Of a DNA stretch of 19,664 nt, positions 1-19,664 are shown one piece after another. A program made the position numbers and the translations under genes. The DNA lies in IMG/VR virus record IMGVR_UViG_2667527633_000005; one strand, 5' to 3'. Source of the DNA: a virus (Duplodnaviria; Heunggongvirae; Uroviricota; Caudoviricetes). Below the pieces are notes generated by a model. It had not been told where the DNA came from and did no database searches. It saw only the letters and a list, made by a program, of their open reading frames with translations. The first letter of the stretch is position 1. Every line of letters starts with the position of its first letter.

Positions 1-177
1 CTACCNNNNNNNNNNTACTTTTGCGCCTCCCAGCCGGACCGGCGCTGCGGCGTAATACGCGGCAATTTCACCAATCCAGCCGGTCAGCCTTTCCCGCTGC
101 TCCTGACTGTTCGCGCCCAGAATAAAATCCATCGCTGACTGCGTATCCAGCTCACTCTCAATGGTGGCGGCATACAT
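1..177 (-). CDS. hypothetical protein, 5' portion only (runs off window start; N-run 6..15 inside)
   Basis: Minus-strand frame opening with ATG at 177..175 (MYAATIESELDTQSAMDFILGANSQEQRERLTGWIGEIAAYYAAAPVRLGG...). Absent from the ORF track because there is no stop in the window. No family recognised. Confidence 0.3.
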   Translation of the reverse strand: MYAATIESELDTQSAMDFILGANSQEQRERLTGWIGEIAAYYAAAPVRLGGAKVXXXX

Positions 178-257
178 CGCCTTTATGAAAAGACAGGAAA
201 AAATAAAATTTAAAAACAGTACATTACGAATGCTCAGACCTATCGTTTAAAGGAGTC

Positions 258-279
258 GCAATACACACTGCAATACACG
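258..279. repeat. left copy of 21-bp direct repeat gcaatacacaCtgcaatacac (two tandem GCAATACAC half-sites); candidate att/arm-type site at left island end
   Basis: Matches 10950..10970 (gcaatacacaTtgcaatacac) at 20 of 21 positions; a further GCAATACACA copy lies at 10920..10929 beside the integrase start. Confidence 0.45.
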
Positions 280-992: not shown

Positions 993-1274
993 TTACCGCC
1001 GCAATCGTTCCGGCTTCTTCCACTGGTAAGTATTTTTCGCGCTCTCCCTCCGTTGTTGAGAACGGCGACGATATGCCAGCAACTCAAGGACTCTTGTTCG
1101 TATGTTGCGCATATCCACGCCGTTAAGCTCAATACCGTCACGGCGCATCACCTCAGCCACTACACGCACATAATTATCTGCGGTCACGCTGTCCGGCTGC
1201 GTGGCCTGTTCGTCATGCTGCTTGCTGATTCCACAAGCACGGCGGATTAATCGCAGTATTTCGGATTCAGTCAT
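993..1274 (-). CDS. hypothetical small protein (93 aa) with arginine-rich C-terminus
   Basis: ORF with ATG at 1274, directly downstream of the terS-like gene on the same strand; C-terminus RRRSQQRRESAK..KKPERLRR suggests nucleic-acid binding. Weak RBS, no family recognised. Confidence 0.4.
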   Translation of the reverse strand: MTESEILRLIRRACGISKQHDEQATQPDSVTADNYVRVVAEVMRRDGIELNGVDMRNIRTRVLELLAYRRRSQQRRESAKNTYQWKKPERLRR

Positions 1275-1356
1275 AGCGTACTACGTTACTTATCTTTATT
1301 CGGCTGCAACTTATCCGGTACGTTTCCGGCAGTTTCCATCAGATAATCGGACAGCA

Positions 1357-1827
1357 TCAGCGGTATGTTTTCGTCAAGTTTTGCGCATGCGTTACAGGCT
1401 CTGATAACTTCTTTTTCAGTCCATCCAGCATAGACGGCTTCATGTCGGGAAACTTCCTTGTCATGGCAAGCGGCAGGCTGTCCATGATTGAAGAAATCTG
1501 ACTCGCCAATTTTGAAAGCACGTATATACAAAACGCTGTATCAATAACGTCGCCGCGTTCGCGCTCGTTTTTAAGCTCCTGCGCCTCTGCCTGTGCTGTC
1601 AGCAATCTGATCCTGACTCGTAGGAGTTCATCATCATCAATCTCGCCTTTGTCGTCTGTAATCTGGTTAATTGCATTGCTAACCCGATTGTCTATTACGC
1701 TGGCAACATCATAAAACGCCTCGCGGCCTTTACGTTCAACGGGAGTCACTCCCCACTTGTCGAACGCTGTCGCACTTACACGGCAGCTTTGCGCCATGTT
1801 TTTTTTGTTCATCAGGTGCGATTTCAT
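1357..1827 (-). CDS. terminase small subunit, phage lambda Nu1-like
   Basis: LLTAQAEAQELKNERERGDVIDTAFCIYVLSKLASQISSIMDSLPLAMTRKFPDM aligns with lambda Nu1 (..RLTRAQADAQELKNARDSAEVVETAFCTFVLSRIAGEIASILDGLPLSVQRRFPEL) as I recall it. Start placed at ATG 1827 (GGGGA RBS 5 nt upstream); the track ORF begins at GTG 1839. Lies about 135 bp downstream of cosN, as in lambda. Confidence 0.85.
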   Translation of the reverse strand: MKSHLMNKKNMAQSCRVSATAFDKWGVTPVERKGREAFYDVASVIDNRVSNAINQITDDKGEIDDDELLRVRIRLLTAQAEAQELKNERERGDVIDTAFCIYVLSKLASQISSIMDSLPLAMTRKFPDMKPSMLDGLKKKLSEPVTHAQNLTKTYR

Positions 1828-1939
1828 CAATATCCCCACTTAAGTAATGTTTCAGGTTGGTGTATTGGCTTTATCTTTTCCTTTTTATTCATAGAGATAG
1901 AGCGAACAACAAAACCACCACCAGCACCCGAAAAAGGCT

Positions 1940-1990
1940 CATAAATAGCGAAAACCCGCGAGGTCGCCGCCCCGTAGCCTACCGGATCGC
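1940..1990 (-). other. lambda-type cohesive-end site (cosN core = reverse complement of 1961..1972, GGGCGGCGACCT, plus conserved flank)
   Basis: Minus strand reads ..ACG GGGCGGCGACCT CGCGGGTTTTCGCTATTTATGAg.., matching the lambda left-end/cosN sequence from memory; positioned immediately upstream of the Nu1-like gene. Confidence 0.8.
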
Positions 1991-2028
1991 CGGAAAGGAC
2001 CCGCCAGCCAGAACGGGCCCTAATTTCA

Positions 2029-2412
2029 TCAACCAATCAACTTATAGCGACCATCCCGTGCATTGCGACGTACACGCTCAATCTTGAGGCATAGCGCCGC
2101 ATCTGGCTTTTTTGGGACAGGTACGCGGCAATATTCAGAAGATCGAGGAATATTGTTTATCCAGTCGATCACTTCACTTAAATACCAGGCCTTACGCCCT
2201 TCCGTAACCTGCACACGCTCCGGGAACTCTCCACTAGCCTCAAGGTTTAGCAATGTGCGACGGCTAAGGGTAGTAAGTTCCATCACCTGATTCATATCAA
2301 CAAGGCGTTCACTTAAACGCATTTTGTCAGCAATAGCCTTTAATTCCTCTACTGCTGGATCCGGATACATCATTTCGGCAATTGGCTTAAGGTCATTGTA
2401 ATGATTCTGCAT
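2029..2412 (-). CDS. AlpA/excisionase-like HTH regulator (127 aa)
   Basis: Central segment MELTTLSRRTLLNLEASGEFPERVQVTEGRKAWYLSEVIDWI resembles the AlpA/Xis-type winged HTH; GGGGGA RBS 4 nt before ATG 2412; sits between the decoration gene and cos. Confidence 0.55.
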   Translation of the reverse strand: MQNHYNDLKPIAEMMYPDPAVEELKAIADKMRLSERLVDMNQVMELTTLSRRTLLNLEASGEFPERVQVTEGRKAWYLSEVIDWINNIPRSSEYCRVPVPKKPDAALCLKIERVRRNARDGRYKLIG

Positions 2413-2423
2413 TGTATCCCCCT

Positions 2424-2765
2424 TTACACACGAGCCAGCGGCTGAACAGAAATACCTGAGCCAACAAACGCGGCAACCTTTGCCGACAGTTCTTTTACAG
2501 ACTCAGGCCAGTTCAGAGCATCAACATTTAAAACACCTGTCTTATAAACCTGTGCCTGTGTTTTTTTCGCTGTGTCGATTTGTACAGCGGAAACATAAAC
2601 CGCTTTACCTACGCTCGAACCATCCCATACCACCAGTGCACCTGTTGCATCTTCCTGCATCAGTGGCGTAAATGCAGGAATTACCCCTTTATTAGCTGAA
2701 AATATCCCCAGCGTAGTCACCAGTGCTTCAGTGCCAGCCATGAGTTCAGTGTAATGAGTAGCCAT
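2424..2765 (-). CDS. head decoration protein, phage lambda gpD-like
   Basis: TPLMQEDATGALVVWDG..VYKTGVLNVDALNWPE..AAFVGSGISVQ parallels lambda gpD (TPLMLDTSSRKLVAWDG..FYKSGTFRYEDVLWPEA..TAFAGTAISIV, from memory); GGGGGAG RBS overlaps the stop of the upstream capsid gene. Confidence 0.8.
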   Translation of the reverse strand: MATHYTELMAGTEALVTTLGIFSANKGVIPAFTPLMQEDATGALVVWDGSSVGKAVYVSAVQIDTAKKTQAQVYKTGVLNVDALNWPESVKELSAKVAAFVGSGISVQPLARV

Positions 2766-2774
2766 TGCTCCCCC

Positions 2775-3815
2775 TTAGCCAATGCGAACGGTAACAAAAC
2801 GATTGATGCGGGCCGGTATTGGCTGTGGTGCTGAATGTGTCTGCACATATTCAATAGCCGGATCACCAGGCACAATATAGTTTTTCGGTGCAAGTTCGGC
2901 TTTAGTCAGCCCCATTCGGATTAGCTCCGGATCCTGAATACCGCCATAGGCGACAATCCCCTGAAGAGCCGTATTGCCAAGCACCATCAAATCAGGATCA
3001 AGGAAATGTTTTTCTGTTCCGTCCTCGTCGGTATAACGCCCGCTGTAAACAACAATCGCAACATCGCCCATATACCCTTTAAAACTCACCGAATCACCAA
3101 GGTCTTTAAGGGCCGTTTCCAGTTCGGAATTAGAACCACGACGGGTATCCAAAGCCTCTTTTATCGCTCTGAATGAACGGTATTTCTTCCATACATTACC
3201 ACCCATAATGATGATATTAGTGACGCCCTCACTAAATTCTGCGTAGCTCTCAATATCATCATTTGGATCAAAAGTTTCTTTATCCTTACCTGACCACTCA
3301 GTACCGCCAGACTGAGTGATGATATTTTGTGGTTTTATATTCCAGTCCAGCTCATAACGTTCAATACCATCGCCCTCAATGATATTTTTCCCCGTTGTGA
3401 TTGCCTGAACAGCAAGCCATTCAATACGTGCACGAATAGCTTTAGCCTGATTTACAATCGCCTGTTTAACTTTAATATTACGTGCCCCAAAAGCATTGTA
3501 TTGCTCAGGTGATACACCAGCAGGGCGCACAGCTAACTTATTTGGATCAATGCTGCTTTTCGGCTTCATATAGCCTGGACGAATTGTTTTTGATTCGTAC
3601 CCTTCGTCACGTGAAACTTTACTACCCACCATAGGAGAACAAAACGCTGCAATTGGGATATTTGGATCGTCGATTGTATCAAGAATAATATCGCGCGATT
3701 CAAACATTACCGAGCGAGTAAAAAACAAACTGGTAAACAACGCATTTAGTTGTTTTTGTACATCTACAGCATTAACCACCTGTACAAGCTGAGTAGGCGA
3801 ATATAAATCAACCAT
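2775..3815 (-). CDS. major capsid protein, phage lambda gpE-like
   Basis: Long collinear match to lambda gpE, e.g. NIITQSGGTEWSGKDKETFDPNDDIESYA..YRSFRAIKEALDTRRGSNSELETALKDLG..YMGDVAIVVYSG..MVLGNT. Start set at ATG 3815 (AAGAGG 6 nt upstream; aligns with the gpE N-terminus); the track ORF extends to 4028, but a stable hairpin at 3990..4020 argues against that extension. Confidence 0.85.
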   Translation of the reverse strand: MVDLYSPTQLVQVVNAVDVQKQLNALFTSLFFTRSVMFESRDIILDTIDDPNIPIAAFCSPMVGSKVSRDEGYESKTIRPGYMKPKSSIDPNKLAVRPAGVSPEQYNAFGARNIKVKQAIVNQAKAIRARIEWLAVQAITTGKNIIEGDGIERYELDWNIKPQNIITQSGGTEWSGKDKETFDPNDDIESYAEFSEGVTNIIIMGGNVWKKYRSFRAIKEALDTRRGSNSELETALKDLGDSVSFKGYMGDVAIVVYSGRYTDEDGTEKHFLDPDLMVLGNTALQGIVAYGGIQDPELIRMGLTKAELAPKNYIVPGDPAIEYVQTHSAPQPIPARINRFVTVRIG

Positions 3816-3989
3816 ACGCATCCTCTTTGCATTCATTAAAAATAATTGTGGATATATGCTACCACCGATATTTGTCATGCGAACACATGCAACCGAGTGC
3901 AATGTTGTATAAAGTTTTGGGGTGACAACTTCAGTGCGGACAATTAGTGTTAATATCTTCACTCCCTTTGGTCGGGATTTATGTAGCAT

Positions 3990-4020
3990 GCCGGAAAATT
4001 TATTTTTTCCGGCCTTTTTT
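3990..4020 (+). terminator. intrinsic-terminator-like hairpin (GCCGGAAAA-tttatt-TTTTCCGGC followed by a T-run), plus-strand orientation
   Basis: Perfect 9-bp stem 3990..3998/4005..4013 with T6 at 4015..4020, in the gap between the SSB-like stop (4032) and the capsid gene; on the minus strand it is a hairpin without a U-tract. Confidence 0.4.
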
Positions 4021-4031
4021 ATTGGCAATAT

Positions 4032-4481
4032 TTAAAACGGGATATCATCTCCCCATTGCTCATTATCTCCCACTGGTGGCTGGCTTCCTTGCTGATCTGC
4101 CTGTTGTTTTGCTCTGTTCAGTTCGTCAGTAGCCTGCCCCTGTTGGCCTTTTTTGCCGCCCGGTCGCGCCGTTCGCGCACTGATTACGCTGTCTGCGATA
4201 ACCTGCCAGCCCCGCCGCGTTTCGCCGTTCTGGCCTGTCCACTGGCTTACCTGCATGTTACCCGCCACGCTCACCAGTTCGCCTTTGTGGTGTTTTGCCA
4301 GTGCGTCGGCCTGTCTGCCAAACGCCAGGACGGATAACCACATCGTCGCCGTTCCGTCATCTGCCTGGCTGCACGGCAGGGGAACCGCCATACTCGCCAT
4401 CGCCATTTGTGTCCCTTTGCTGGTGGTCTTTAACTGCGGGTCAGCCACCAGCCGCCCGTAAGCCGCTATCTGTGCTGTCAT
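4032..4481 (-). CDS. single-stranded DNA-binding protein-like (C-terminal acidic DDIPF tail)
   Basis: Ends ..NEQWGDDIPF, the hallmark SSB C-terminal tail, preceded by a Gly/Gln-rich linker and an N-terminal domain compatible with an OB fold; overlaps the upstream ORF by 4 bp. Confidence 0.65.
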   Translation of the reverse strand: MTAQIAAYGRLVADPQLKTTSKGTQMAMASMAVPLPCSQADDGTATMWLSVLAFGRQADALAKHHKGELVSVAGNMQVSQWTGQNGETRRGWQVIADSVISARTARPGGKKGQQGQATDELNRAKQQADQQGSQPPVGDNEQWGDDIPF

Positions 4482-5077: not shown

Positions 5078-6832
5078 TTATAAAAACGCGTCGCAATCGT
5101 CTGTTGTAATTGCGTTGGTCTGCGTTACTCCCTTAACTTTTCGCGTAATATATTCATGCCCGTAAACTTTCGCCGCTGGCTTCATGGCCTTGCTGAACTC
5201 AGCCACGTTTAGCGGTTTGCTCCTGCCCGCGTATGCCATAAACGCCAGATAGACGCGGTAAAGGCTGTTCCTGGTCGTGTACTTCACTGAATCACCACCG
5301 CCACCCATCATCAGGCCGCGCGCTTCCTCCAGAAAATTCAGGAACTGGCAAAACTCAATAACCGGATCCGTCTGTTGCTTTATTGCCAGTGCTTCATCAC
5401 CGTCACGCTGTTCCAGTAGTAAAGCCCGTGCCTTCTCAGGGTCGGTAAAGTTCGCCAGCAATCGGCGGATAATAACGGGGATTTCAGCCGCAATCTTTTC
5501 CGGTAGCTCCCTGTCTTTTTCGGCCTCACTGACGATATTGTCGAAACGGAAAATCACGCGACGACGTGCCACACCTCCGGCCCGTTCGGTGAATATCATC
5601 GGGTTGTTGTTGGTCGCCAGCACCACCGCCCTGATTACCGCCGTGAAACGCTTTTCATATTTCGGGTTAATTTCCACGGGGTCGCCGCCTGTGATTTTCT
5701 TGATGCCCGTTCCTTCGCCTGTATATTTCGGCTGGTCAGCCAGGACGATAAGACGACTCCCGACAACCTGCGCACGTCCACCAGCATCATCAAGCGATGT
5801 CATTTCAGCGCTTACCGTGTTCTGTTTCCCTGCCAGAAGGCTGGCTATGTGTGTGAATGTACTTTTACCGCTCCCGCCGTCTCCGGTGGCCTCAATAAAC
5901 ATCTGCCAGTCGTACCGGTTCGCCATAATCATGTACAGCGCGGCACATATACGCATCATCTTGCGCGGGTCTTTTCCGGCTGCGTGCTCAAGCCATTTAT
6001 GAAAGTTTGGCGCGTTATCGCGGATGTTCTCCCCTGGTGCTGGTGGCGTGTACTCAATGCCGTTGTGCGTGGTGATCCAGTTCTCCGGCGTGTGCGGGGA
6101 AAATTCCCCCGTTTTCAGGTCAAGCGCACCATTGGCGAACGGCAGCAAATCGCCAGACGGCTCGCCCATTGGTTCGGCAATAACTTTTAACGCTTCCACG
6201 GCGTTATTGATTACGCGCTTGCTGAAAGTGGCCCTGTGCTCTGAATAGATCGCCACCATTTCGCGGCTAAGTTCCATTGTGCTGACCGGACACCATACCC
6301 CGCCGCGCCATACGTGAACGATTTCACTTTCAGGATGTACGCAAACGCCATCAAAGCGATCGGCAAGCAACTGCGCGCGCTCACTGTCCGCCATCTGCGA
6401 AAGTTGCGCCTTTTGCTTTACCGGAAGCTCAATGACCAGACCATCAGAAAGATTCTGGCGTTCACGGGCCAGATATTCGCGCCAGTTCTGCACCTCCTGG
6501 CCGTGCATACCCTCAGGATAAAAATTTGCATCCTGTACGCCTGCTGCCGCCAGCTTCTGACCAATCGCCTTTATCATTACAGGCGCAAGATATCCGGCCC
6601 TGTATATGCGTGCTGATTTTCGGCCTTCCGGCACAATTTGCAGATTATCCAGTTCGGATAGCTGCTGCTCCCCAAGCCACACAGGAGGCTCATTATCTCC
6701 GGCCATACGCGCATCATGTTCCTGCCATTGTTTCGCGTGTGCCCAGGCATCACTACCCGCAAAAATAATGACTTCTGTTCCTTTGTGTTTTATGCCGCGT
6801 GACTGCTGTTTTACGTTCGGTGCCAGTTTCAT
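5078..6832 (-). CDS. P4-family primase/helicase (Pri-Rep-like replication initiator)
   Basis: 584-aa ORF with Walker A IEATGDGGSGKSTFTHIASLLAGK and a C-terminal region typical of phage/plasmid P4-type primase (D5_N/SF3 helicase-like); the position (small ORFs, pri, then iteron ori) matches satellite replication modules. Confidence 0.9.
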   Translation of the reverse strand: MKLAPNVKQQSRGIKHKGTEVIIFAGSDAWAHAKQWQEHDARMAGDNEPPVWLGEQQLSELDNLQIVPEGRKSARIYRAGYLAPVMIKAIGQKLAAAGVQDANFYPEGMHGQEVQNWREYLARERQNLSDGLVIELPVKQKAQLSQMADSERAQLLADRFDGVCVHPESEIVHVWRGGVWCPVSTMELSREMVAIYSEHRATFSKRVINNAVEALKVIAEPMGEPSGDLLPFANGALDLKTGEFSPHTPENWITTHNGIEYTPPAPGENIRDNAPNFHKWLEHAAGKDPRKMMRICAALYMIMANRYDWQMFIEATGDGGSGKSTFTHIASLLAGKQNTVSAEMTSLDDAGGRAQVVGSRLIVLADQPKYTGEGTGIKKITGGDPVEINPKYEKRFTAVIRAVVLATNNNPMIFTERAGGVARRRVIFRFDNIVSEAEKDRELPEKIAAEIPVIIRRLLANFTDPEKARALLLEQRDGDEALAIKQQTDPVIEFCQFLNFLEEARGLMMGGGGDSVKYTTRNSLYRVYLAFMAYAGRSKPLNVAEFSKAMKPAAKVYGHEYITRKVKGVTQTNAITTDDCDAFL

Positions 6833-8124: not shown

Positions 8125-8430
8125 ATGGCAACGGCTAACAAAAACGCAAAATCACAACTGACAACTGTCAGAGTCCCACTAGATGTTATGCAAGGGATGG
8201 AATCCGTTAAGCTGGACGGTGAAAGCAATGCCGGATTTATCGTAACCGCCATGCGCGGAGAAATAGCCCGCCGCCAAGCAGAAGGCAGCGGAGAAAATCC
8301 CCTTGTGTCGTCACTGGATGCCCTGGCTAAGGTCGAACAAATCGGCATCAAAGCAGCCGAGGAGATCGGGCAACTCGTCACCGTCGCGCGTGAAGAACTC
8401 CAGCGACGCAAGGTCAAAGAGCATGAATAG
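8125..8430 (+). CDS. ribbon-helix-helix (CopG/Arc-like) DNA-binding protein; candidate island repressor
   Basis: N-terminal LTTVRVPLDVMQGMESVKLDGESNAGFIVTAMRGEI has the strand-helix-helix pattern of RHH regulators; strong AGGAG RBS; transcribed opposite to the main island operon. Confidence 0.55.
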   Translation: MATANKNAKSQLTTVRVPLDVMQGMESVKLDGESNAGFIVTAMRGEIARRQAEGSGENPLVSSLDALAKVEQIGIKAAEEIGQLVTVAREELQRRKVKEHE

Positions 8431-9398: not shown

Positions 9399-9656
9399 TT
9401 ATTGCTGTTTTGTTTTTCCAGGTTTCCATCCAGGATGCCACTCACCACGGATCCATGCCTGAACCTCTGAAAGTCGATACCCTGCAGCACGTTCACCGAT
9501 CTTGATACGTCGCGGGAATTTACCTGCCTGCTCCATTTTCCAGCGTGTTGAGTTTGCCAGCGTGGTAAGTGCTATGCACTCTTTTTCACGAATGAACCGA
9601 TCAATGTCCTTCATTGTGCGCAAATCGTTTTCATCAACAAGAGAATAAATTGCCAT
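9399..9656 (-). CDS. alpA: AlpA-family transcriptional regulator / excisionase-like protein
   Basis: 85 aa; ..CIALTTLANSTRWKMEQAGKFPRRIKIGERAAGYRLSEVQAWI is typical of AlpA (prophage CP4-57 regulator family); start is 2 bp after the integrase stop. Confidence 0.85.
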   Translation of the reverse strand: MAIYSLVDENDLRTMKDIDRFIREKECIALTTLANSTRWKMEQAGKFPRRIKIGERAAGYRLSEVQAWIRGEWHPGWKPGKTKQQ

Positions 9657-9657
9657 A

Positions 9658-10899
9658 TCACACCACCTCTTTATTAAGCTCGATAACGTTGTTGTTAAAT
9701 CCTGCTATCGTATTAAGGTAATTAACCCACATATTAAGCACCTCAAGTTTTTTCTTTATATGCCTGCTTTTATTGTAAACACCAGCAACCCCTTTCACTT
9801 TATGACCTAAAAGAAGTTCGACAATATAAGGATCCGCCCCCATATCATTAAGCGTAGTGGAAAATGTGCGCCTGAAATCATGTATGCACCACAAGCCATT
9901 AGTATCATGACCAAGACGCCTGCATATTCTGTTTGCAGCCCCTGTTATTGTCGCCCTTTGCAAAGCACAACCGACAACATAACCGCGATTTTTTGTTTCT
10001 GCGTAAAGATTAACGATCCATTGTTTTATTCCGTCAGGAACAGGCCTTACTATAGCCTCCTTGTTTTTGCTGTGCTCTTTTGGGACTGTCCATACCCAGT
10101 TTTTTAAATCCCATTCGTCCCAGGTGGATAGCCTCGCCTCCTGCTGTCGGCAACCAAACACCAGGCAGATAACCATTATTCTTCGGTTATATATTGATGA
10201 CAGAGTTAGCAAATTATTACCGTAAGCATAAGACCATACATCAGCGGTTTCATTGATATTAAGAACGCGATCCCTTATACCGGATGAGCGCCCGACATAA
10301 CTTACGTTAATATCTCCAAAGGGATCGCACGCGATGTATTGCCTGACGCGACAAAAACGCAACGCCTGTTTGATATCAAGAAAAATTGCACCAGACATAA
10401 CAGGCGCATTTTTTTTGATCCTGTCAAAGACGGTAAGCCATGTGTGTAATTTGCACTGTTCTATAGCCATATCACCGATATAGGGGAAGATATGCTTTTC
10501 AAATCGTTTTATTAAATATTCATGCTCTTTTCTGGCTGTTGTGGCGTGATTGTCGTACCAGTAAAACAGCGCATCCCTTACGGTCACTGGTTGCATAGTT
10601 TTTTCGGCAGCAAGTTTTATTTGCCTGCGGGGGTCCAGATTTTCAGCCAGCCATTCACGGCACTGATCACGCATGCGCCTGGCCGTTGCAAGAGACATGT
10701 CAGGATAGCGACCAAGTGTAAGCCATACCGGAGGGGATTCCCTGCCACCAAGACGATAGTAAAAAACAAAGCTGATCCCCCCAACCATGCTTACACGCAC
10801 AGACAACCCGCGCCCATCCGCTATTGTTTTTTGTTTGTCCTGCCGTTTTCCGACAAGACTCTTTAACAGTTTGTCACTGAGTTTGTTTTCAATAGCCAT
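9658..10899 (-). CDS. int: tyrosine site-specific integrase, P4-type
   Basis: 413 aa; N-terminal arm-binding-like region (LSDKLLKSLVGKRQDKQKTIADGRGLSVRV..FYYRLGG); C-terminal catalytic motifs HDFRRT..LLGH..GVY; GAGGG RBS 7 nt before ATG 10899. Confidence 0.95.
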   Translation of the reverse strand: MAIENKLSDKLLKSLVGKRQDKQKTIADGRGLSVRVSMVGGISFVFYYRLGGRESPPVWLTLGRYPDMSLATARRMRDQCREWLAENLDPRRQIKLAAEKTMQPVTVRDALFYWYDNHATTARKEHEYLIKRFEKHIFPYIGDMAIEQCKLHTWLTVFDRIKKNAPVMSGAIFLDIKQALRFCRVRQYIACDPFGDINVSYVGRSSGIRDRVLNINETADVWSYAYGNNLLTLSSIYNRRIMVICLVFGCRQQEARLSTWDEWDLKNWVWTVPKEHSKNKEAIVRPVPDGIKQWIVNLYAETKNRGYVVGCALQRATITGAANRICRRLGHDTNGLWCIHDFRRTFSTTLNDMGADPYIVELLLGHKVKGVAGVYNKSRHIKKKLEVLNMWVNYLNTIAGFNNNVIELNKEVV

Positions 10900-10919: not shown

Positions 10920-10970
10920 GCAATACACACCCATCCCGATCGCCAATTTGCAATACACATTGCAATACAC
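10920..10970. repeat. right copies of the GCAATACACA repeat (10920..10929; 21-mer gcaatacacaTtgcaatacac at 10950..10970); candidate attR/arm-type or AlpA/Int operator sites
   Basis: Direct repeat of 258..278 (20/21 identical); located in the integrase promoter region. Confidence 0.45.
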
Positions 10971-11174
10971 AAAACCGCGAAAAACTGGAAGGGTGATGAA
11001 CGGTCATCAAAAGCATGGAAAACGACATTCCAGACGCAGCAAGGGTTTCAGTGGAGTTGGCGAACGATGCGGGCAACTACGGTGAGATGATAGACATAAA
11101 TCGCCTTCACAATGGCGCTCTGCAGCTGCGTGTTCTGCAGCGTGTCGAGCATCTTCATCTGCTNNNNNNNNNNT

Positions 11175-16718: not shown

Positions 16719-16873
16719 TAGCGATAATTTTACTCATCATCCTTCACATCTGGCTCTGTAGNNNNNNNNNNCCTGTCACGCCCGGATTTTTTACAGGCGT
16801 TACCTCATTTTCATCTTTTTCATTCACTGCTCGCTGACGACAGTTACGGGCAGATTATCCATAAGGAACAGGT

Positions 16874-19160: not shown

Positions 19161-19664
19161 ATGAGACTGTCTCACTGTATTCTCACCGCAGCCATACTGG
19201 CTTCCGCGTCAACAGCCCATGCCCTGCCCAATATGTGGACCAGCGGATTTGGTCAGGGCGTGACCGAATATATCATTACCAGCCCGGATAAGGTGGTATT
19301 TAATCTGAATTGTACTGGCAATCCGGATGCGCAGAATATTCTGCAACACAGCGTCTGGCTCACCCTGCCTGATGGCACTTCCGTCAATTCCAGCGATGAC
19401 GGAACAGAGATAACGGTCGTCATGGATAACAGCCAGTACCCCTTACCGTCATTCCTTGGCTGGCGAAACGGTGACAATGCCTGGGTGTCATTTATTAATG
19501 CGCTGAGTCAGGCTGCGAATTTTGATGTTTACGTCAACGATAAAAAAGTTGGCTCCTTTAGGGAAGGTGCGAATAAGCGGGGAAATTCTTCTCGGCTGAC
19601 TCAGTCATTTCATTTCTTCATNNNNNNNNNNCTATGTACAGGCTCCATCAAGGGTAAAGCGTGA
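19161..19664 (+). CDS. exported hypothetical protein (signal peptide); 3' region interrupted by N-run 19622..19631
   Basis: MRLSHCILTAAILASASTAHA-LPN.. signal peptide; the frame passes through the N-run, so the C-terminus and stop are unreliable. Confidence 0.45.
   Translation: MRLSHCILTAAILASASTAHALPNMWTSGFGQGVTEYIITSPDKVVFNLNCTGNPDAQNILQHSVWLTLPDGTSVNSSDDGTEITVVMDNSQYPLPSFLGWRNGDNAWVSFINALSQAANFDVYVNDKKVGSFREGANKRGNSSRLTQSFHFFXXXXLCTGSIKGKA

Follow-up and report, generated by a model that had tools for sequence, protein, structure and literature searches.

The window, the whole stretch of 19,664 nt analysed here (Caudoviricetes, IMG/VR record IMGVR_UViG_2667527633_000005), contains an island of 10,924 bp between att cores at 171-184 and 11095-11108 and, within it, a pair of lambda-type head genes termed E' and D'. 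The initial annotation had given the island about 10.7 kb; the figure needed correction, while the point that such an element lies far below a lambda headful stands. The features are as follows.

171-184, minus strand: attR core, AAGGCGATGTATG(+1), placed by sequence and portal frame; from this core the helper portal gene continues with its 3' portion
258-278, minus strand: HE-PICI doubled motif (TGTATTGC x2), attR side, repeat family D9, 81-101 bp from the core centre at ~177
993-1274, minus strand: conserved ORF of 93 aa, the last late-zone gene (PHROG 1561, 1e-55; 76% identity to the last EcCICFT073 gene)
1285-1827, minus strand: Nu1-type small terminase TerS' (PF07471, 1e-21; PHROG 57, 7e-42)
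1939-2006, minus strand: cos site, 68 nt that differ little from the cos of the helper prophage (aligned to loci L001 and L002)
2029-2412, minus strand: AlpA-like HTH protein, 127 aa (PF05930, 1e-8; PHROG 2790, 2e-48)
2424-2765, minus strand: D', decoration (cement) protein of the gpD/SHP type, 113 aa, translationally coupled to E'
2775-3815, minus strand: E', major capsid protein of the lambda gpE type with HK97 fold, 346 aa, full length, of a satellite-specific clade
4032-4481, minus strand: single-strand DNA-binding protein (PF00436, 6e-16), directly upstream of E'
5078-6832, minus strand: primase/replicase (D5_N, DUF5906, Pox_D5)
9399-9656, minus strand: AlpA regulator/excisionase (annotated in H1; homologues adjoin int in L005, L006 and L009)
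9658-10899, minus strand: tyrosine integrase (Pfam PF13356, PF00589, PF22022)
10950-10970, minus strand: HE-PICI doubled motif, attL side, ~131 bp from the core centre at ~11101
11095-11108, minus strand: attL core, GAAGGCGATTTATG; the helper portal gene's 5' portion stops at this core

E' is a gpE-type capsid protein by family and fold, and its assembly into a shell is predicted from these. The Pfam family Phage_cap_E (PF03864) matches with E=1e-41 and 143 bits (cut-off 22.9), residues 12-343 aligning to positions 4-327 of the 329 in the profile, and PHROG 29, 'major head protein', matches at 2e-89. The PDB sequences retrieved are lambda gpE (7VI9) at 5e-77 and, at 3e-121, 3BQW, a crystal structure that shows the EcCICFT073 c1499 protein and no capsid assembly. 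The AF2 model has a pLDDT of 81.8, with low confidence at the tip of the E-loop (residues 56-73), and shows the N-arm, E-loop, P-domain with spine helix and A-domain of the HK97 fold. It superposes over its full length on 3BQW (TM 0.91) and on lambda gpE (TM 0.83-0.87 against 7SJ5 and 7VI9) with no domain gained or lost; the comparison with gpE that had been suggested at the outset thus returns the same fold. D' is a member of the HDPD family by profile (PF02924, E=4e-15, 56.4 bits, cut-off 29.1) and by similarity to the structures of phage 21 SHP (1TD0, 4e-16) and lambda gpD (1C5E/7VII, 8e-12). It also belongs to PHROG 49, 'head decoration' (6e-26), and is predicted to bind as trimers at three-fold sites. 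The E-like and D-like identities first assigned to the two genes therefore hold.

The two genes share a reading frame and 9 nt separate the E' stop from the D' start. The junction reads ...GGC TAA GGGGGAGCA ATG..., so that the Shine-Dalgarno sequence of D', AAGGGGGAG, starts within the E' stop, the overlap reported earlier being read directly from the letters. The junction of D' with the next gene is alike (TAA AGGGGGATACA ATG), making the AlpA-like HTH gene the third of an E'-D'-HTH run with the same stop/Shine-Dalgarno/start arrangement; this gene also directly follows D' in L003-L006 and L011. Among relatives the E'-D' spacing ranges from -1 to 14 nt and the frame is variable, with tight translational coupling kept. 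A fusion protein of 463 aa (P0005) exists, and a read-through E'-D' fusion was rejected as a conserved feature because frame and spacing differ among relatives. Both CDSs also appear in the RefSeq annotation of an E. coli locus with 99.9% identity, and the gene pair is not a chance feature.

The island is a Gram-negative PICI, of the HE-PICI group, in the portal gene (B) of a lambdoid prophage, a class assignment that rests on gene content, helper induction and transfer having been shown for relatives only. The att cores divide the reading frame of the portal gene, whose two halves are annotated in H1, and in the 99.9%-identical locus of E. coli JNE23-011 (NZ_AP045067.1) the island has Nu1-A-W upstream and C-D-E-FI-tail genes downstream. 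It has the size (10-20 kb), unidirectional int, alpA, pri-rep and late/packaging zone by which Gram-negative PICIs are recognized (Fillol-Salom et al. 2018), and the satellite context claimed for the two head genes is borne out by this gene set and by the att cores in the portal gene. By the definition of Tommasini, Mageeney & Williams (2023; PMC10111431), HE-PICIs have two copies of a doubled TGTATTGC motif, one ~81 bp upstream of the attP centre and the other ~132 bp downstream. Like them, the island here carries the motif at the published spacings, lies in and is co-oriented with a lambdoid late gene, and is laid out in four zones, of which the late one includes a capsid gene. The type element 11capE lies in helper gene E and is said to be without terS, whereas the present island occupies portal gene B and encodes a Nu1-like TerS'. 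Among the island ORFs there are no lysis or tail genes and no portal, protease/scaffold, head-tail connector or large terminase genes; a tblastn search of the island found no gpC/Nu3-like scaffold, and an Rfam scan of it gave no match. Since the island has none of its own, helper portal, protease/scaffold, large terminase and tails would be needed, and since it is co-oriented with the portal gene, helper late transcription should pass through E'-D'.

The cos site contains the exact lambda cosN 12-mer GGGCGGCGACCT at 1961-1972, and the cosB region downstream of it has diverged from that of the helper. The TerS' gene has lost 1 nt in a run of A near 1411-1416 and is left as ORFs 1357-1827 and 1286-1531; by alignment the intact protein in E. 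coli JNE23-011 has 181 aa. Because of the frameshift this copy of the island may not be fully functional, although the deletion could also be a homopolymer sequencing error.

E' belongs to a clade found only in satellites, which includes c1499 of the model island EcCICFT073. Identity is at least 50% within the clade, ~42% to phage gpE and 42-43% to the helper gpE of the same prophage, and only a 3-4-aa insertion in the N-arm and 16 clade-fixed substitutions distinguish the satellite from the phage clade. The gene order is E'-D' in every satellite examined and C-D-E(-FI) in every phage context examined; D precedes E in all those retrieved (L001, L002, L007, L009 and L012), which confirms the inversion that had been noticed in the window. 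The int...E'-D' layout recurs at loci in E. coli, Kluyvera, Superficieibacter, Cedecea, Kosakonia, Edwardsiella, Lelliottia and Salmonella, and at most of these loci alpA and a D5-type primase were detected too. The pair is intact in every satellite locus examined, in at least eight enterobacterial genera. The identities of E' and D' drop together across loci, indicating inheritance as a unit. Both are under strong purifying selection, equally strong across contexts, with dN/dS of 0.02-0.08 for E' and 0.07-0.12 for D' at saturated synonymous sites.

The pair is also widespread. Clusters of E' proteins at 99% identity hold more than 1,900 member sequences, with representatives of 346 aa, and of 5426 complete E. 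coli genomes 758 have a DNA match to a 1.7-kb E'-D' query, 395 of them over at least 80% of its length. A capsid gene is present in 21 of the 29 reference Gram-negative PICIs (Tommasini et al., PMC10111431), so that the expectation that a lambda-type pair would be unusual in such an element is not upheld. A genome-collection scan with the single protein yielded four loci, and the wider gene context comes from protein look-ups. The close relatives L005 and L006 are islands within the helper E gene, with fragments of helper D and E on their flanks, and the Lelliottia PICI L010 is chromosomal, adjoins fis and keeps the E'-D' pair. A Lelliottia PICI carries an E'-D'-gpC-like protease run and c1501 of EcCICFT073 resembles the Nu3-like C-terminal end of gpC, neighbours that support a genuine head-building role for the E'-D' module.

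EcCICFT073 is the best-studied relative. It shares with the island here the E' and D' families, the satellite clade, the E'-then-D' order, and the position of the pair after the replication module and before a packaging-specificity gene and a homologous last ORF. The differences are that the E' and D' proteins of the window are only 54-55% identical to c1499 and c1500 (54% for D' against c1500), that EcCICFT073 is chromosomal whereas the present island sits in a prophage portal gene, that D' is followed there by the Nu3-like c1501 and here by the AlpA-like HTH gene, and that EcCICFT073 uses RppA whereas the island here has a cos site and a full Nu1-type TerS'. No homology to c1501 or RppA was found among the post-D' genes of the window; E'-D' and the last ORF are common to both islands, the genes between are not. 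Redirection of capsid size by EcCICFT073 was proposed and tested in 2018, and all DNA that had been packaged was of phage size (PMC6092414; PMC6739421; reviewed in PMC6893505). Deletion of c1499 or c1500 left transfer and lambda interference unchanged (PMC6092414). In the standard marked EcCICFT073, c1499 is replaced by cat and transfer still reaches 1e5-1e6 per ml. In these tests transfer was by the resident CFT073 prophages, DNA size and interference were determined with lambda, and for the c1499-replaced island transfer was also measured with lambda and phi80. When the late-zone genes were overexpressed one by one, only c1503 (RppA) inhibited lambda, the others causing no loss of plaquing by lambda, phi80 or HK97. 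No later functional assignment of the capsid and decoration genes of PICIs was found in the literature.

Other head-protein systems place the pair further. Lambda gpE and gpD and phage 21 SHP have the same folds and families as E' and D'. Compared with gpE and gpD, E' is ~42% and D' ~38% identical and the gene order is swapped; the N-terminal segment of D' differs from that of gpD and SHP and is shorter, and, unlike lambda, the island has no adjoining portal, protease/scaffold or FI genes. Ccm of SaPIbov5 resembles E' in being a paralogue of the helper coat protein, with HK97 fold, that a cos-packaged satellite encodes (PMC6893505). It is 23% identical to the helper coat and turns the head from prolate to small and isometric; when it is lost, phage titres recover by 1e6-1e7 (PMC6893505). 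Unlike Ccm, the EcCICFT073 homologue of E' changes neither size nor interference, and the review describes no decoration-protein partner for Ccm (PMC6893505), whereas E' has D'. The cf-PICIs (e.g., EcCIEDL933) resemble the present island in their int, alpA and rep backbone and in having capsid genes in clades apart from those of phages. They carry, however, a complete set of genes for head and packaging (capsid, protease, portal, connectors, HNH, TerS, TerL), whereas the island here encodes shell, cement and TerS' only and does not belong among them.

The leading reading, tentative and given somewhat under an even chance, is that E' and D' are accessory structural subunits that would enter heads of normal size filled with about four island copies. 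It draws on the identity, fold, clade, gene order, selection and cos/att anatomy observed here, and on the phage-sized DNA and dispensability known from the relative EcCICFT073 only. The helper-type cosN would be cut by the helper TerL, with the Nu1-like TerS' of the island directing packaging at a private cosB. With lambda-type packaging the distance between cos sites has to be roughly 38-51 kb. One T=7 head of normal size would accordingly be filled by about four copies of the island, which come to 43.7 kb (4 x 10.9 kb, or 90% of the lambda length). It had been argued that a cos element of this size cannot fill a lambda head as a monomer, and we agree; multimers in helper-sized heads, the first of two routes proposed, accord with the phage-sized packaged DNA of EcCICFT073, the closest relative studied. 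E' would form its own capsomers, locked by cognate D' trimers, and these may enter the heads beside or in place of helper gpE and gpD. At ~42% identity to the helper gpE, co-assembly of E' in one lattice is uncertain. The gpD protein attaches to shells only once they are expanded and filled with DNA, and is required only beyond ~82% filling; the retention of D' thus argues that E' lattices would really be filled with DNA. The pair would then be a non-essential supplement or back-up supply of shell subunits and not a size determinant, and since EcCICFT073 with c1499 replaced by cat transfers with no phenotype, its structural contribution would be invisible in the laboratory.

The second route, in which E', together with D', builds small shells of T=3 or T=4 on the portal and scaffold of the helper, with room for one or two copies of the island and none for the helper genome, appears very unlikely. 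It has precedents in the SaPIbov5 capsid paralogue, which does redirect size (PMC6893505), and in the Pasteurella island PmCI172, which makes small heads and encodes a capsid homologue (PMC6092414; PMC6893505). Against these precedents stand the phage-sized DNA of EcCICFT073, the lack of effect of the c1499 and c1500 deletions and the acceptance of large-capsid packaging in reviews. From end to end the E' model superposes on gpE and 3BQW and neither gains nor lacks an element, and its 42% identity to (hence divergence from) the helper gpE is the same as between T=7 lambdoid phages. The Ccm-like redirection first envisaged for the pair thus failed in EcCICFT073, with just the outcomes that the initial annotation had named as its refutation; this is a refutation by homology only, given proteins 54-55% identical, a Nu1-type TerS in place of Rpp, and tests made with CFT073 prophages, lambda and phi80 and not with the native helper. 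Shells built of satellite subunits alone, a homotypic E' lattice with cognate D' on helper portal and scaffold, are unlikely in this TerS'-bearing, helper-embedded lineage. If they were made, the island would stand between classical PICIs and cf-PICIs as a 'half capsid-forming' PICI, and shells assembled with the native helper might deviate from the helper's own heads in their size, stability or choice of terminase. Similarly unlikely is the idea, taken from Tommasini et al. (PMC10111431), that E' (with D') replaces the helper E gene broken by the island until excision and is carried along when islands move to other sites such as gene B. The helper E gene is the commonest HE-PICI site, the one most often used by islands of this integrase clade, and L005 and L006 lie inside it, so a back-up role suits those islands better than the one in the window, which interrupts the portal and not E, and E'/D' cannot replace a portal. 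Moreover, the chromosomal PICIs EcCICFT073 and Lelliottia L010 keep E'-D' too, selection on the pair is equally strong across contexts, and the knock-out is tolerated in EcCICFT073.

A role outside packaging, for which the missing transfer phenotype of EcCICFT073 leaves room, would have E'/D' act as a decoy or poison that disturbs head assembly of competitor phages other than the helper, or that masks or triggers capsid-sensing host defences. Anti-phage functions are common in PICIs, yet this reading is quite improbable: overexpression of single EcCICFT073 late-zone genes (except c1503) brought no drop in plaquing by lambda, phi80 or HK97, interference was not relieved by deletion of c1499 or c1500, and a cognate cement protein, with a protease/scaffold in some islands, would be hard to explain for a decoy. 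That the pair is a relic, captured from phage head genes and now decaying without a function, fits the deletion without phenotype in EcCICFT073 and is hardly credible. It is contradicted by the selection analysis (dN/dS of 0.02-0.12 overall, synonymous sites saturated), by full-length intact ORFs in at least eight genera, by protein clusters of more than 1,900 sequences whose representatives have 346 aa, and by the conserved tight translational coupling.

Taken as a whole, the initial annotation was right on gene identities, satellite context, swapped order and the impossibility of filling a head with a monomer, and was not sustained on size redirection and on rarity. Lambda-type capsid and decoration genes in Gram-negative PICIs, the capsid-shrinking idea and its negative test are already published, so the island does not represent a new kind of system. 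The puzzle is an E'-D' pair without a laboratory phenotype that is nevertheless intact, kept by purifying selection, always swapped in order and of a lineage apart from phages. Presence of E'/D' in virions would tell how far classical PICIs have gone toward capsid-forming PICIs and bears on whether satellites hedge against loss of helper head genes.

As for expression of the pair, the coding strand from ssb to E' gave no site resembling a sigma-70 promoter, and a hairpin in this gap (3990-4013) has its T-run on the opposite strand. A dedicated promoter and terminator framing E'-D' were accordingly rejected, the data being consistent with read-through or activator-dependent expression.

On the minus strand of the window, an ORF for a gpE-type major capsid protein (E′) is followed by one for a gpD/SHP-type decoration protein (D′), with an HTH gene and cos beyond:

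2775-3815, minus strand: E′, 346 aa; Pfam Phage_cap_E over the whole profile (1e-41) and PHROG 29 'major head protein' (2e-89)
2424-2765, minus strand: D′, 113 aa; Pfam HDPD (4e-15) and PHROG 49 'head decoration' (6e-26)
2029-2412, minus strand: AlpA-like HTH gene after D′, the D′/HTH junction laid out like E′/D′ (stop/Shine-Dalgarno/start)
1961-1972, minus strand: cosN, the exact lambda 12-mer, between the HTH gene and terS′

The E′/D′ junction of the window reads GGC-TAA-GGGGGAGCA-ATG, so the Shine-Dalgarno sequence of D′ begins within the E′ stop codon. The initial annotation of an E-like gene followed by a D-like gene, coordinates included, is borne out by the Pfam and PHROG matches, this junction and RefSeq, which annotates the same CDSs in an E. 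coli locus of 99.9% identity. The two genes share one frame in the window, with TAA and nine nucleotides between them (2766-2777). A database protein of 463 aa (P0005, 85% identical to E′) carries both Pfam domains and has exactly the length predicted for an E′-D′ fusion, which suggests a lost stop codon. The frame match looks incidental because the frame relation varies among relatives, where the E′-D′ spacing is always tight (-1 to 14 nt).

The window joins several draft contigs through runs of ten N (6-15, 11164-11173, 16762-16771 and 19622-19631), and the island sits on the contig at 16-11163, where its annotated genes are all on the minus strand except a YlcI-like ORF (8125-8430). In E. 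coli JNE23-011 an identical island lies within a lambdoid prophage and splits the portal gene into two halves; Nu1-A-W precede it and the C-D-E-FI-tail genes come after, every one in the same orientation. The portal reading frame of the window breaks off at 11095-11108 (GAAGGCGATTTATG) and is taken up again at 171-184 (AAAGGCGATGTATG), giving an island size of 10,924 bp. Two copies of a doubled TGTATTGC motif (258-278 and 10950-10970) have spacings that match those diagnostic of helper-embedded PICIs (Tommasini et al., PMC10111431). The island genes run integrase, AlpA, Bro-N, small ORFs, D5-type primase, SSB, E′, D′, HTH, cos, a Nu1-like small terminase (TerS′) and a conserved 93-aa ORF. By Pfam, PHROG and annotation, the island lacks genes for a portal, a protease/scaffold, TerL, tails and lysis. 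Three tandem 54-nt repeats (591-752, 65-72% identical) between the last ORF and attR each contain a short palindrome (CCTCAAATTGAGG, CCCCCAATGGGGG, CCTGCATTGCAGG) followed by an AATCAATGGGTTAG-like sequence, and may be protein-binding iterons. Sequence beyond 11173, not physically established as adjacent to the island, includes a lipocalin, a YbgA-like gene, IS1 InsA and a holin/lysozyme/Rz lysis cassette.

The element is supported as a cos-packaged, helper-embedded PICI. Its cosN lies within a 68-nt stretch (1939-2006) almost identical to the cos of the helper prophage; downstream, at the expected cosB, the sequence diverges and is unrelated. A helper-like cosN, a diverged cosB and TerS′ together indicate that the island borrows the helper TerL, whereas the small terminase and cosB are its own. 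Lambda-type packaging requires cos sites spaced by about 78-105% of the genome length, so island DNA can fill a lambda-type head only as a multimer; four copies come to 43.7 kb, or ~90% of lambda length. The linear packaged form would begin with terS′ and end with E′-D′-HTH. The 181-aa terS′ gene (1285-1827, minus strand) is split into two overlapping ORFs, 1357-1827 and 1286-1531, by a one-base deletion in the A-run 1411-1416, which is A5 in the window and A6 in E. coli JNE23-011. Either the frameshift is genuine and inactivating, hitting the C-terminal, TerL-binding end, or the draft assembly contains a homopolymer sequencing error.

A search of the protein collection with E′ was bimodal, with one group at 50-99% identity and another at 38-43%, and clustering splits the two cleanly. 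Members of the more distant group lie in phage head modules of order portal-C-D-E-FI. The closer group includes c1499 of EcCICFT073, the model PICI of E. coli CFT073; every member whose context was read lies in a satellite with an int...E′-D′ layout, and alpA plus a D5-type primase was detected in most of these contexts. The satellites come from E. coli, Kluyvera, Superficieibacter, Cedecea and Kosakonia, from Edwardsiella (also inside a portal gene), Lelliottia (chromosomal) and Salmonella (within a P2-like tail cluster), and two of them (L005 and L006) have integrated into the E gene of the helper itself. Since satellites carry E′-D′ whereas phages carry D-E, the swapped order is a shared trait of a satellite-only lineage. 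That it is a peculiarity of the window is ruled out by its presence in all satellite contexts read. Identities of E′ and D′ drop in parallel across loci, indicating joint inheritance as a selected pair; dN/dS ranges over 0.02-0.08 in E′ and 0.07-0.12 in D′, and synonymous sites are saturated.

Tommasini et al. (PMC10111431) described an island with two captured helper segments in reverse order; in the phage these segments abut at the integration site. Speculatively, such a reversal is the outcome expected from capture of both flanks via a circular intermediate, and the same route may have placed E before D. The order E′-D′-C′ of the Lelliottia island is the complete reverse of the phage C-D-E; it is not obtainable by a single rotation and suggests, again speculatively, that genes were added step by step on the right side of the late zone.

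The E′-D′ pair in PICIs is already known. EcCICFT073 encodes a capsid protein (c1499) and a head decoration protein (c1500) (Fillol-Salom et al. 2018, PMC6092414), and capsid genes occur in 21 of 29 reference Gram-negative PICIs (Tommasini et al., PMC10111431). An analogy with Ccm, the SaPIbov5 paralogue that redirects capsid size, was explicitly raised and tested for c1499/c1500: DNA extracted from EcCICFT073 particles was all phage-sized, deletion of c1499 or c1500 left transfer unchanged (3.8e3 and 8.7e3 against 8e3 per ml for the parent), and neither deletion restored lambda plaquing (PMC6092414). The standard marked EcCICFT073 has cat in place of c1499, and its transfer with phage 4 and phi80 runs at 1e5-1e6 per ml; its authors found no phenotype for c1499 (PMC6092414). 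Packaging into phage-sized capsids was restated in 2019, and c1503 (RppA) proved to be the sole gene whose individual expression blocks lambda (Fillol-Salom et al. 2019, PMC6739421). A review discusses the capsid-paralogue idea for PmCI172 and has EcCICFT073 packaged into large capsids (Dokland 2019, PMC6893505). Literature searches found no later paper giving PICI capsid or decoration genes a function. The residual interest lies in the strong, unexplained conservation of two genes for which no phenotype is known.

In sequence, the solved structure closest to E′ is that of EcCICFT073 c1499 itself, determined by crystallography (3BQW, E=3e-121), followed by lambda gpE (7VI9, 5e-77); those closest to D′ are phage 21 SHP (1TD0) and lambda gpD. 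An AlphaFold model of E′ (pLDDT 81.8, pTM 0.81) superposes on 3BQW with TM 0.91 and on lambda gpE with TM 0.83-0.87. A 3-4-residue N-arm insertion, an additional residue in the E-loop and 16 fixed substitutions are all that separates the satellite clade from the phage clade; the substitutions cluster at the E-loop base, the spine helix and the C-terminal P-domain strands. In lambda these regions surround the three-fold sites bound by gpD, and the placement of the substitutions fits co-adaptation of E′ with D′. Compared with 3BQW and lambda gpE, the predicted structure holds no hint of a different triangulation number.

Size redirection by E′/D′ is very unlikely, being contradicted in the closest studied relative, EcCICFT073, although that result was obtained on another pair, 54% identical to the window pair, and with helpers other than that of the window island. 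Of the earlier interpretation, the gene identities stand on their profile matches and the multimer alternative agrees with the phage-sized DNA of EcCICFT073; it is the redirection that fails against the c1499/c1500 deletions without effect. A back-up role, suggested for islands interrupting helper late genes (Tommasini et al., PMC10111431), would fit L005 and L006, but as pure replacement of an interrupted helper E gene it is unlikely, since it fits neither the chromosomal islands nor the portal-embedded island of the window. A decoy or antagonistic role is argued against by over-expression and deletion data and is quite unlikely, and a relic, contradicted by the selection analysis, is scarcely credible.

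The island has the orientation of the late operon that holds it, so helper late transcription should run through E′-D′. The cognate cement protein is always kept alongside E′, and in some relatives D′ still has beside it a gpC-like protease (L010, Lelliottia) or a Nu3-like remnant (c1501). Proteins of the gpD type bind only expanded, well-filled shells. Together these points lead E′/D′ to be taken as working head components, which would enter normal-size heads assembled on the helper portal and scaffold and would act as a supplement or hedge, not a size switch, a reading that is plausible but tentative.

In islands of the window type from five genera (E. coli and L003-L006, the latter with HTH proteins 64-71% identical to one another), D′ is directly followed by the AlpA-like HTH gene, and an AlpA-family gene likewise follows D′ in the Salmonella island L011. 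In the window the gene adjoins cos, directly upstream, and its product could be a packaging or late-gene regulator. The PICI of Lelliottia sp. SL45, adjoining fis, encodes E′ and D′, next a gpC-like protease of S49 type, full length and sharing 50-57% identity with phage gpC, and after it an RppA homologue (L010:9001-12337), as well as a head-tail connector-like gene (PF05521) near alpA. In EcCICFT073 the ORF after the decoration gene (c1501, L002:2084-2497) has no Pfam match; it is similar to the Nu3-scaffold-like part at the very C-terminus of head proteases of the gpC type (BLASTP 2e-7, residues 414-487 of 495; PHROG 53 positions 495-567 of 583, E=1e-8); judged from these matches, EcCICFT073 may encode shell, cement and a scaffold-like fragment. 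No counterpart of c1501 was found in the window island. A 4432-bp metagenome scaffold (L012) carries a chimeric capsid gene (2801-3829, protein P0043) whose 5′ two-thirds are almost identical to a lambda-like helper gpE, with three mismatches in the first 660 nt, and whose 3′ 377 nt are identical to the E′ of the window. Phage C and D lie upstream of it and a satellite D′ and HTH gene after it, the crossover falling at a 16-nt stretch common to both capsid genes (TGGATACCCGTCGTGG); the chimeric gene is a true recombinant between helper and satellite or else an artefact of assembly.
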